A stretch of DNA of 64,000 nucleotides, taken from an uncultured Verrucomicrobiae bacterium. Its GTDB lineage: Bacteria; Verrucomicrobiota; Verrucomicrobiia; Chthoniobacterales; Xiphinematobacteraceae. Shown here piece by piece: positions 42,717 to 44,625 of this stretch (positions are counted from its first letter, which is position 1; each line of letters opens with the position of its first letter). The notes beneath the pieces were generated by a model that worked only from the letters and a program-made list of their open reading frames with translations, had not been told where the DNA came from and did not search any database. The stretch is taken from assembly GCA_963706715.1 (NCBI GenBank), contig CAVPNI010000004.1, forward strand, positions 320,001 to 384,000, given 5' to 3'. The translations under genes were made by a program, and so were the position numbers.

Positions 42717-43589
42717 ATGGTCGTCAAAATACCCAGTTTGAAGAGTAACTATTCTGGATTTTCATCACTTGCAAGAATCGCAAATTCCACAAAAGAGCGC
42801 TTTTCTGACTTTACTGACGAAGTACATGTGGATTTTTCGGAAGCAAATTGGATCGATGCAAATATGACTGCCGCGCTCGGTGTTATATTAAGCCCTATTG
42901 AATACGACAATACCGTGTCGTTAATGAATCTTAAACCTGCTGTTGAAGACATTTTCCTAAGAAATAATTTTCTTGCCAGGCATGGTCATTCTAAAGCTGA
43001 TGTGCACGGCACTACGATTCCCTATCAAAGCTTTAATTCAGAAGATGCCGAGCCTTTTGCTTATTATTTGAAAACATATTTTTACCGAAAAGAAATTCCC
43101 AAAATGTCCAAATTACTTGAGGAGCGTTTCAAAAGAAACATTCTGGAAATATTCGAAAATGCAGCGACACACTCGGAAACAAAGTTCGGAATTTTTGTTT
43201 GTGGACAATTTTTTCCAAAACAACATCGTTTGACTTTCTGCGTCGCTGATGCAGGTATTGGATTTCGGCAGAAAATCTACAAGGAACTCGGACTGATATT
43301 GAATTCAGACACGGCTATCCGCTGGGCTTTGGAAGACCGGAATACAACTCGTAAAGGAAATGTTCCCAGTGGACTGGGGTTGAAATTATTACGCGAGTTT
43401 GCCAAACTAAATGGCGGACTTCTACAGATTGTGTCTGATCGAGGATACTGGGAATGTGGAGGGAATGGCGAAACCATCTCCCGCTTCGATGAGTCCTTCC
43501 CTGGAACTGTCGTGAATCTTGAAATAAATACGGCTGACACCTCTTCATACAGCTTGAGTATGGAAAACAAATCTGACAATTTATCATAA
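42717..43589 (+). CDS. STAS-like N-terminal domain + GHKL (HATPase_c) ATPase/Ser-Thr kinase-like domain
   Basis: VDFSEANWIDA (STAS-like); N box EIFENAATHS, G1 DAGIG, G2 GLGL, G3 FPGT. Confidence 0.85.
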   Translation: MVVKIPSLKSNYSGFSSLARIANSTKERFSDFTDEVHVDFSEANWIDANMTAALGVILSPIEYDNTVSLMNLKPAVEDIFLRNNFLARHGHSKADVHGTTIPYQSFNSEDAEPFAYYLKTYFYRKEIPKMSKLLEERFKRNILEIFENAATHSETKFGIFVCGQFFPKQHRLTFCVADAGIGFRQKIYKELGLILNSDTAIRWALEDRNTTRKGNVPSGLGLKLLREFAKLNGGLLQIVSDRGYWECGGNGETISRFDESFPGTVVNLEINTADTSSYSLSMENKSDNLS

Positions 43590-43592
43590 ACC

Positions 43593-43976
43593 ATGCCAGA
43601 AACGATTACTATGTCAGAAACAATTTTACTCCGAATTTACGATATTGTTGGTGGTCCTTTCTGGATATCCCAAAAGGATGGACAGAAAGTCTACGAAAAG
43701 ATTGTAGCCGCATTTAAAGAAAACCGTGTTGTAAAACTATCATTTTCTGGTCGCGAAAATTTAATTACTGCATTTCTCAATGTCGCAATCGGACAACTCT
43801 ACAGCGGAGACTTTACGGAAGATTTCCTAAAAACGCATCTTATTCCCACAGAGATTACAGATGATGACAGAGAAATGTTGAATGTGGTTATTGCAAACGC
43901 AAAACGATATTTTGCAGATCCACTAACTTATGATGAAATTTGGAATGATGAAATAAGTGATGAAGAACATGAGTAA
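43593..43976 (+). CDS. STAS-like domain protein (DUF4325-like)
   Basis: DGQKVY...VKLSFSG...ITAFLNVAIGQLY. Confidence 0.8.
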   Translation: MPETITMSETILLRIYDIVGGPFWISQKDGQKVYEKIVAAFKENRVVKLSFSGRENLITAFLNVAIGQLYSGDFTEDFLKTHLIPTEITDDDREMLNVVIANAKRYFADPLTYDEIWNDEISDEEHE

Positions 43977-44625
43977 AGCTCACAATGCACTTAACTATAG
44001 CTTTACCAAAGACGAAGAAATTTTAGTTGATACAAACGTTTGGATTTTTCTTTATCCACCGACAAAGCCACCAGCTTCACATGCTTCGCAGGATTACAAA
44101 TACAGCATAATTTTTAAAAAACTGAGGGAGGCAAACGCTCGTCCAATAATCAGCTCACTAATATTGAGTGAATATTTTAACCGTTATATCCAATGCGAGT
44201 ATCGAGGGTTATGGGAAAGACAGTATAAAAATCGGAAAAAATTTCGACAGTCAACCGCCTTTACTTCTGTGGGACAGGCTGCTACTAACAATATAAGGAA
44301 CATTCTGACGTTTACTGAATTGCGCGACACCCTAATTTCACAAATTGATCTTTCTTCTATTTTAAAGGCTATCGAAGATGGAGCATGCGAATTTAACGAT
44401 GCTGTATACGTTGAAATCTGCCGCAAACAGGGATGGAAAATGCTTACACATGATGCGGATATGGCATATGGTGGCATCGAGCTACTCACGACAAACGAAT
44501 CTCTTCTTGGTACCTTTAATCTGATTGAACAAAGGGCTAAGGCTGCAACAGGCAAGGGATGGGAACAATTGAAAGACTATATTCCTGATGCTCCGCCGCA
44601 AGCCGGTGATGAACTGCCGGAATGA
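43969..44625 (+). CDS. PIN-domain ribonuclease
   Basis: LVDTNVW, SEYFN, FNDAVY, THDAD; ATG overlaps upstream stop (ATGAGTAA). Confidence 0.85.
   Translation: MSKAHNALNYSFTKDEEILVDTNVWIFLYPPTKPPASHASQDYKYSIIFKKLREANARPIISSLILSEYFNRYIQCEYRGLWERQYKNRKKFRQSTAFTSVGQAATNNIRNILTFTELRDTLISQIDLSSILKAIEDGACEFNDAVYVEICRKQGWKMLTHDADMAYGGIELLTTNESLLGTFNLIEQRAKAATGKGWEQLKDYIPDAPPQAGDELPE

Follow-up and report, generated by a model that had tools for sequence, protein, structure and literature searches.

What do the three tightly packed genes at positions 42717-44625 of this window encode, is the system new, and is this copy still in working order? The window is the whole stretch of 64,000 nucleotides that was analysed, taken from a contig of an uncultured Verrucomicrobiae bacterium. 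An earlier note had described the locus as an operon of a STAS-GHKL kinase, a STAS protein and a PIN nuclease, and had proposed a candidate toxin or anti-phage system with the kinase as sensor, the STAS protein as antitoxin and the PIN protein as toxin. Operon conservation, structure and profile comparison and the defence-system libraries had been named there as checks. We found that the window operon is a real, intact further copy of an already named and partly characterised system, VapKSC, and genes 1, 2 and 3 are called vapK, vapS and vapC below. The features on which the argument draws are:

40122-40196, + strand: tRNA-Phe(GAA), which bounds the island on the left and is followed by the N-terminus of an integrase cut by IS630 (tRNA call)
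42124-42692, - strand: divergent, frameshifted prophage-like gene, HTH-like (paralogue comparison)
42717-43589, + strand: vapK, STAS-like N-terminal domain and GHKL kinase, 290 aa, without HTH (ORF, Pfam, profile, AF2 model)
43593-43976, + strand: vapS, DUF4325 STAS antitoxin with a C-terminal helix, 127 aa (Pfam E 1.1e-11; PDB 9Z7O_A E 2e-7)
43767-43769, + strand: codon of VapS Thr59, the predicted phosphorylation site (alignment with S48 of Escherichia VapS)
43969-44508, + strand: PIN core of VapC, residues 1-180, with D21, E68, D144, D162 and D164 kept and D141E (PDB 9Z7O_C E 0.004; fold model)
44509-44625, + strand: in-frame 38-aa tail of VapC, within which 44530-44622 shows homology to HicB-family antitoxins in their C-terminal part (homology, GC)
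45325-46820, - strand: ISL3 insertion splitting the downstream ORF (about 45171-47618, +), with the 8-bp GAAAATCC at both ends (repeat/ORF comparison)
58320-58393, - strand: tRNA-Arg(TCT), right boundary of the island, with an integrase ORF (56965-58182) at its 3' side (tRNA call)

All three reading frames (42717-43589, 43593-43976 and 43969-44625) are open on the + strand and code for proteins of 290, 127 and, counted from the ATG of gene 3, 218 aa; alternative upstream starts of gene 3 lie at 43957 (GTG) and 43960 (ATG). The spacing between genes 1 and 2 is exactly 3 nt (ACC) and the overlap of genes 2 and 3 is exactly ATGAGTAA. The GC content of the operon is 0.40 vs 0.47 for the window, and the operon is present once in the genome. 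A search for sigma-70-type promoters between 42300 and 45000 gave 0 matches, where shuffled sequences lead one to expect 6.1.

The domain content of VapK emerged mainly from profiles and the structure model. The Pfam match to HATPase_c (E 8e-5) was below the cut-off, Pfam gave no HisKA/DHp domain with an H-box, the NCBIfam kinase matches were far below cut-off and phmmer against the PDB returned 0 matches. In the family profile built from 62 sequences, positions 19-80 matched the anti-sigma antagonist TM1442 (E 0.011) and positions 132-242 matched ATPase domains of histidine kinases. The AF2 model (pLDDT 92) begins directly with a STAS-like unit and matches GHKL folds including SpoIIAB. A two-component sensor histidine kinase was also considered and set aside, as there is no HisKA domain on gene 1. 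The residues W45, E144, N148, H152, D178-x-G180-x-G182 and G219-x-G221 are all present, and W45 is a putative ssDNA-contacting aromatic. In an alignment of the best 120 of 873 matches, W45 is found in 117/119 and N148 in 119/119 close homologues; the two correspond to F54 and N160 of Escherichia VapK by a mapping made by eye onto Table S2 of PMC13373217. As a side remark, the numbering printed for Escherichia VapK in Appendix Table S2 of that paper runs 5 below the residues F54, N160, K180 and K181 of its text (by-eye count).

Gene 2 has a clear Pfam match to DUF4325, and its Thr59 lies in the ITAFLN motif. The equivalence with Escherichia S48 was derived from position 66 of chain 9Z7O_A minus an 18-residue tag. 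The column is S or T in 89/100 VapS homologues; of the other 11, eight carry S/T in the preceding column and three in neither, two of these three being the nearest VapS relatives of all (L012 and G001, 76% and 70% identical). Gene 3 scores below the Pfam cut-off for PIN (E 0.0011), and its confident model has the PIN/VapC fold. D21 is the counterpart of D28 in Escherichia VapC, and D141E is the sole change among the catalytic acids. The Foldseek listing for VapC was without 9Z7O; the library extends to April 2026 and may predate the release of that entry. The tight coupling, the STAS-like start and GHKL kinase of gene 1 without HisKA, the STAS-like gene 2 with its Thr and the acidic motifs of the PIN protein are therefore all as the earlier note had read them, and what escaped it was the foreign extension of 38 aa at the end of the PIN protein.

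That note had added that a match to a characterised system would remove novelty, and the operon does match one. At E<=0.01 the only match of gene 2 is VapS of PDB 9Z7O (E 2e-7), and at E<=0.1 the only match of gene 3 is VapC of the same entry (E 0.004). This is the VapS-VapC structure that accompanies VapKSC (Chambers et al., EMBO J 2026, PMC13373217). All three proteins align with a plasmid locus of Deinococcus gobiensis (VapK 31%, VapS 39%, VapC 25%), and VapK is 54% identical to a protein of Aromatoleum toluclasticum; the D. gobiensis genome and the species A. toluclasticum are both in Dataset EV3 of PMC13373217. The operon is also conserved, since the order vapK-vapS-vapC is kept in 9/9 homologous kinase loci (7/7 in GTDB, the D. 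gobiensis plasmid and the Javan172 prophage). Of the defence libraries, PADLOC 2.0.0 (2023) left the system unnamed and gave only a weak DrmA match on the ATPase stretch, so the library check itself supplied no name and the name came from PDB 9Z7O and PMC13373217. NCBIfam had no match above cut-off for the operon proteins, and the PHROGs matched, 3364 and 9989, are both listed with unknown function. In the literature searched, 'vapKSC' was found in Chambers et al. and its preprint alone. The three genes being vapK, vapS and vapC, the reading as a novel system was rejected.

Two side observations concern other members of the family. Streptococcus phage Javan172 (MK448860.1) carries a full vapKSC adjoining an integrase, in which the vapC ORF (about 4260-4780) is not annotated as such. 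In the Deinococcus plasmid (2465-2926) and in the Streptococcus prophage (2222-2959) vapK is directly preceded by HTH regulator genes; none was seen in the window.

According to the available text of PMC13373217, 289 instances of vapKSC are catalogued, 103 of them near other defence genes. Toxicity, rescue and protection are demonstrated for the orthologue from Escherichia sp. E4736 only: its VapC is toxic and VapS rescues; the S48E substitution in VapS abolishes rescue and binding, deletion of the VapS C-terminus abolishes rescue, and the solved VapS-VapC structure is a 2:2 complex (PMC13373217). The system gives about 2-log protection against phage Bas42, which is lost with D28A, S48A or F54A, and the text words the protection as against 'at least one' phage (PMC13373217). 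Activation by ssDNA was demonstrated for CapK and is modelled or inferred for VapK, and the phosphorylation of VapS by VapK and the RNA target are inferred even there (PMC13373217). The window operon resembles VapKSC in gene order, sizes and domains, in its homology to 9Z7O and to catalogued members, and in the paired residues (paper/window) S48/T59, D28/D21, F54/W45 and N160/N148. It differs in having Thr for Ser and Trp for Phe, both within the range of the family, in the HicB-derived tail of 38 aa on VapC, and in a VapK that deviates from the consensus more than most homologues.

We predicted the VapS-VapC complex as well. The score of 0.83, against 0.00 for the best of 3 controls, passes a mark attained by 116/157 solved pairs and 2/215 mismatched pairs, and may reflect likeness and not binding, because a like complex is already solved (9Z7O). 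Contact agreement between the runs was at least 83% and partner pLDDT at least 87. In the predicted interface T59 contacts VapC residues 29 and 108, and VapS residues 105-122 also contact VapC.

From these parts a mechanism can be proposed. VapS would bind and block VapC, a predicted PIN RNase. The likely activator of VapK is single-stranded DNA that arises in phage infection, DNA damage or repair; VapK would then phosphorylate T59 of VapS, which is buried in the predicted interface, and this would free VapC and lead to growth arrest. The roles that the earlier note gave to its kinase, STAS and PIN proteins agree with this published and partly tested model (PMC13373217). We place the probability that the operon is a member of VapKSC, and likely a phosphorylation-gated toxin-antitoxin module, at about 0.8.

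For the question of whether the switch still works, the surroundings have to be considered. The operon lies in a stretch of 18 kb between converging tRNA-Phe and tRNA-Arg genes. About 49% of this island is multicopy IS DNA (IS630, ISL3, IS66, IS110 and others), vs 12% repeats genome-wide. The divergent gene upstream, presumably resembling a small terminase, is frameshifted relative to a paralogue on contig C1 that reads through the junction in one frame. The C-terminal fragment of a primase is found at 51213, and this fragment and the two integrases mark the island as of putative phage origin. The statement that the flanking phage genes are broken stood for the upstream frameshift and for the downstream ORF split by ISL3; it did not stand for the whole island, where the two integrase ORFs, of 388 and 405 aa, and a Phd-PIN pair are still open. 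A search of 39-59 kb for attL/attR-like repeats of either tRNA gave none above 10 bp. The family scan, which covered ORFs from 19.2 kb to 61.3 kb, found no sigma factor or phosphatase, in line with the earlier note, and one gene for a SpoIIE phosphatase lies on another contig, C1.

Several further features of the region and the genome were recorded. The open Phd-PIN pair is a second toxin-antitoxin pair (56163-56917, +), with a Phd/YefM-like antitoxin (weak, E 0.003) and a PIN toxin (E 8e-9). The integrase N-terminus cut by IS630 (40284-40475, +) has a full-length homologue of 338 aa in G001 (L018 5351-6367, -), which there adjoins tRNA-Arg. The genome as a whole has undergone a heavy recent IS expansion, with many 99%-identical copies of ISL3, IS630, IS110 and others, and about 12% of its 3.04 Mb is in repeats. 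Two genomes of the same genus measure just 0.9 Mb, a size that suggests that genomes are shrinking in this lineage. ARAGORN called a tRNA-Ala of 98 nt (24637-24734, -) inside a TamB-like ORF of 1125 aa, which is probably false. An ORF of 1570 aa (19191-23903, +) is without a Pfam match at E<=1e-4, and a low-GC stretch precedes it.

Among relatives, VapKSC is patchy in its distribution within the class. The vapS profile matched in 3/401 genomes of the class, own included, and vapK was not found in 40/40 relatives searched. The profiles of vapK and vapC matched in 0/4 genomes of the same genus, G002 among them being only 73% complete. Two relatives retain parts of the system at the same site. 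In the metagenomic relative L012 the vap genes have the same tRNA-Arg and ppc as neighbours; about 175 codons are missing from the interior of vapK, the T59 position of VapS is Ala and vapC is open, as read from one contig of 3.4 kb in which misassembly is possible. G001, a genome of the same genus (98% complete, 60 contigs), has vapS at the same tRNA-Arg site with Pro at the T59 position, and profile searches did not find vapK or vapC in it. A second vapS in the window's own genome is a 3' fragment (C3:196436-196570), 77% identical and cut by IS elements, that adjoins a paralogue of the 405-aa integrase of the window; no second vapK or vapC was found in this genome. A separate observation is an apparently broken vapKSC in G109 (L015/L020), a fragmented genome where only VapK 185-289 and VapC 141-180 were matched around an intact vapS that keeps its Ser.

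The window VapK also carries unusual substitutions. Nine of 97 conserved columns deviate from the consensus, vs a median of 2, and only 6/119 homologues have as many. S218 falls in a column that is G in 119/119 homologues, where Escherichia VapK has R (read by eye), and Q169 replaces K181, which is the second of the Lys residues in the ssDNA groove model.

These facts bear on the best surviving alternative, namely that the operon is VapKSC with a failed kinase switch, in which VapK is decaying and VapS-VapC survives, within a degrading island, only as an addiction module of two parts or as an inert relic. The excess deviations in VapK, the IS load of the island, the kinase deletion and T-to-A change beside an open vapC in L012, the lone vapS of G001 with its T-to-P change and the truncated vapS on C3 would all be in agreement with it. 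However, all three frames of the window are open with no IS inside, the VapK model is confident, and VapK retains W45, N148 and the D/G boxes and VapS retains T59, while both kinase-deficient relatives have lost the Thr. On balance we consider the failed switch rather unlikely. The retention of T59 would fit a residue that is kept only while a kinase exists, as both kinase-deficient relatives are without S/T; L012 and G001 are two related genomes and therefore do not count as independent evidence for such a coupling. It is tempting to arrange the copies at the tRNA-Arg site into a disassembly series, from the complete operon through L012 (kinase deleted, phospho-site lost, toxin and antitoxin open) to the orphan antitoxin of G001, in which a signal-gated defence turns into a plain addiction module and the captured HicB tail re-tunes VapC. 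We regard this series as doubtful.

Under the reading of VapKSC with a working switch, this copy is presumably expressed and active. For activity speak the frames left open among broken neighbours and the dN/dS values against L012 (vapS 0.20, vapC core 0.25, ppc 0.14), ratios that average the whole divergence and therefore do not prove present function. Against activity speak the excess deviations of VapK including S218, the lack of a consensus promoter and the loss of system parts in the two nearest relatives; both sides are judged from sequence. The operon may have outlived its prophage because loss of vapS alone would presumably be toxic.

The GC content of the VapC tail is 0.49 vs 0.39 for the PIN core. 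Among the best 150 of 812 homologues, VapC extends beyond N176 by a median of 6 and a maximum of 20 residues, vs 42 in the window protein; none of the 150 has a tail of at least 30 aa, and there is no match past residue 186. In 15 plasmid records the C-terminus of a HicB-family antitoxin matches the final 31 residues (50% over 34 aa in the best record, E 1e-3), with an alignment score attained by 0/5000 shuffles, and a Pfam search with the tail alone gave 0 matches. The tail DNA also follows vapC in L012, so the fusion of vapC and tail is older than the split between the window and L012, and a sequencing artefact was rejected on the same grounds.

A functional tail, acting as degron, self-inhibitor or new docking site and altering the control of VapC, could be imagined from the preserved frame, from the age of the fusion and from the first part of the tail, which is modelled as a helix extension (177-194). 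Yet no homologue among the 150 has a tail of such length, in L012 the tail is shifted out of frame by a gap of 28 bp while vapC is still open, the end of the tail has low pLDDT, and the list of residues in the predicted VapS-VapC interface does not name 181-218, although they may still make contact. We find a function for the tail very improbable. It is probably a harmless or neutral scar of an old deletion, which would have fused vapC with the last part of an adjacent antitoxin gene.

The operon also shares features with other described systems. CapK-CapS (PMC13373217) has likewise a STAS-GHKL kinase with a STAS substrate, and the W-I-D motif around W45 reads, by eye, like that around W68 of CapK; in the window, however, the kinase is without HTH, the STAS protein without wHTH, and the output is an RNase and not a promoter. 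SpoIIAB/SpoIIAA and RsbW/RsbV share the GHKL Ser/Thr kinase fold and the STAS substrate, whereas the window locus is without sigma factor or dedicated phosphatase and its kinase has its own STAS domain. A sigma-factor partner switch of the SpoIIAB/SpoIIAA type or a transcriptional regulator like CapK/CapS, with the PIN gene incidental, would explain the common GHKL and STAS folds, but was rejected as next to impossible given gene 1 without HTH, gene 2 without wHTH by Pfam (127 aa vs 184 aa for CapS), the PIN gene next in 9/9 loci and the direct match to 9Z7O. VapBC shares the PIN toxin fold and differs in that the window antitoxin is a STAS protein under predicted kinase control and not a DNA-binding VapB. 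The PIN.4 cluster of Matelska et al. 2017 (PMC5499597), likened here by description, comprises VapC-like PIN proteins transcriptionally coupled to DUF4325 genes; in the available text its function is listed as unknown and a kinase is unmentioned. The available part of the DefensePredictor paper (PMC13092281) describes other PIN systems and is without mention of STAS, and that of a Francisella phage paper (PMC7924643) reports a pair of a 293-aa and a DUF4325 protein, function not given.

Only the extra tail of VapC and the decay of the system in close relatives are unusual in this copy of VapKSC. A further copy makes little difference, because VapKSC is already named, its VapS-VapC pair solved, the system phage-tested and 289 instances catalogued. 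The loss of S/T in both kinase-deficient relatives adds small evolutionary support (n=2, related) for the phosphorylation of VapS by VapK. Because Escherichia VapK was insoluble and its kinase not assayable (PMC13373217), another orthologue would be useful, and candidates for a kinase assay are the window VapK or, among the 873 homologues, one that deviates less.
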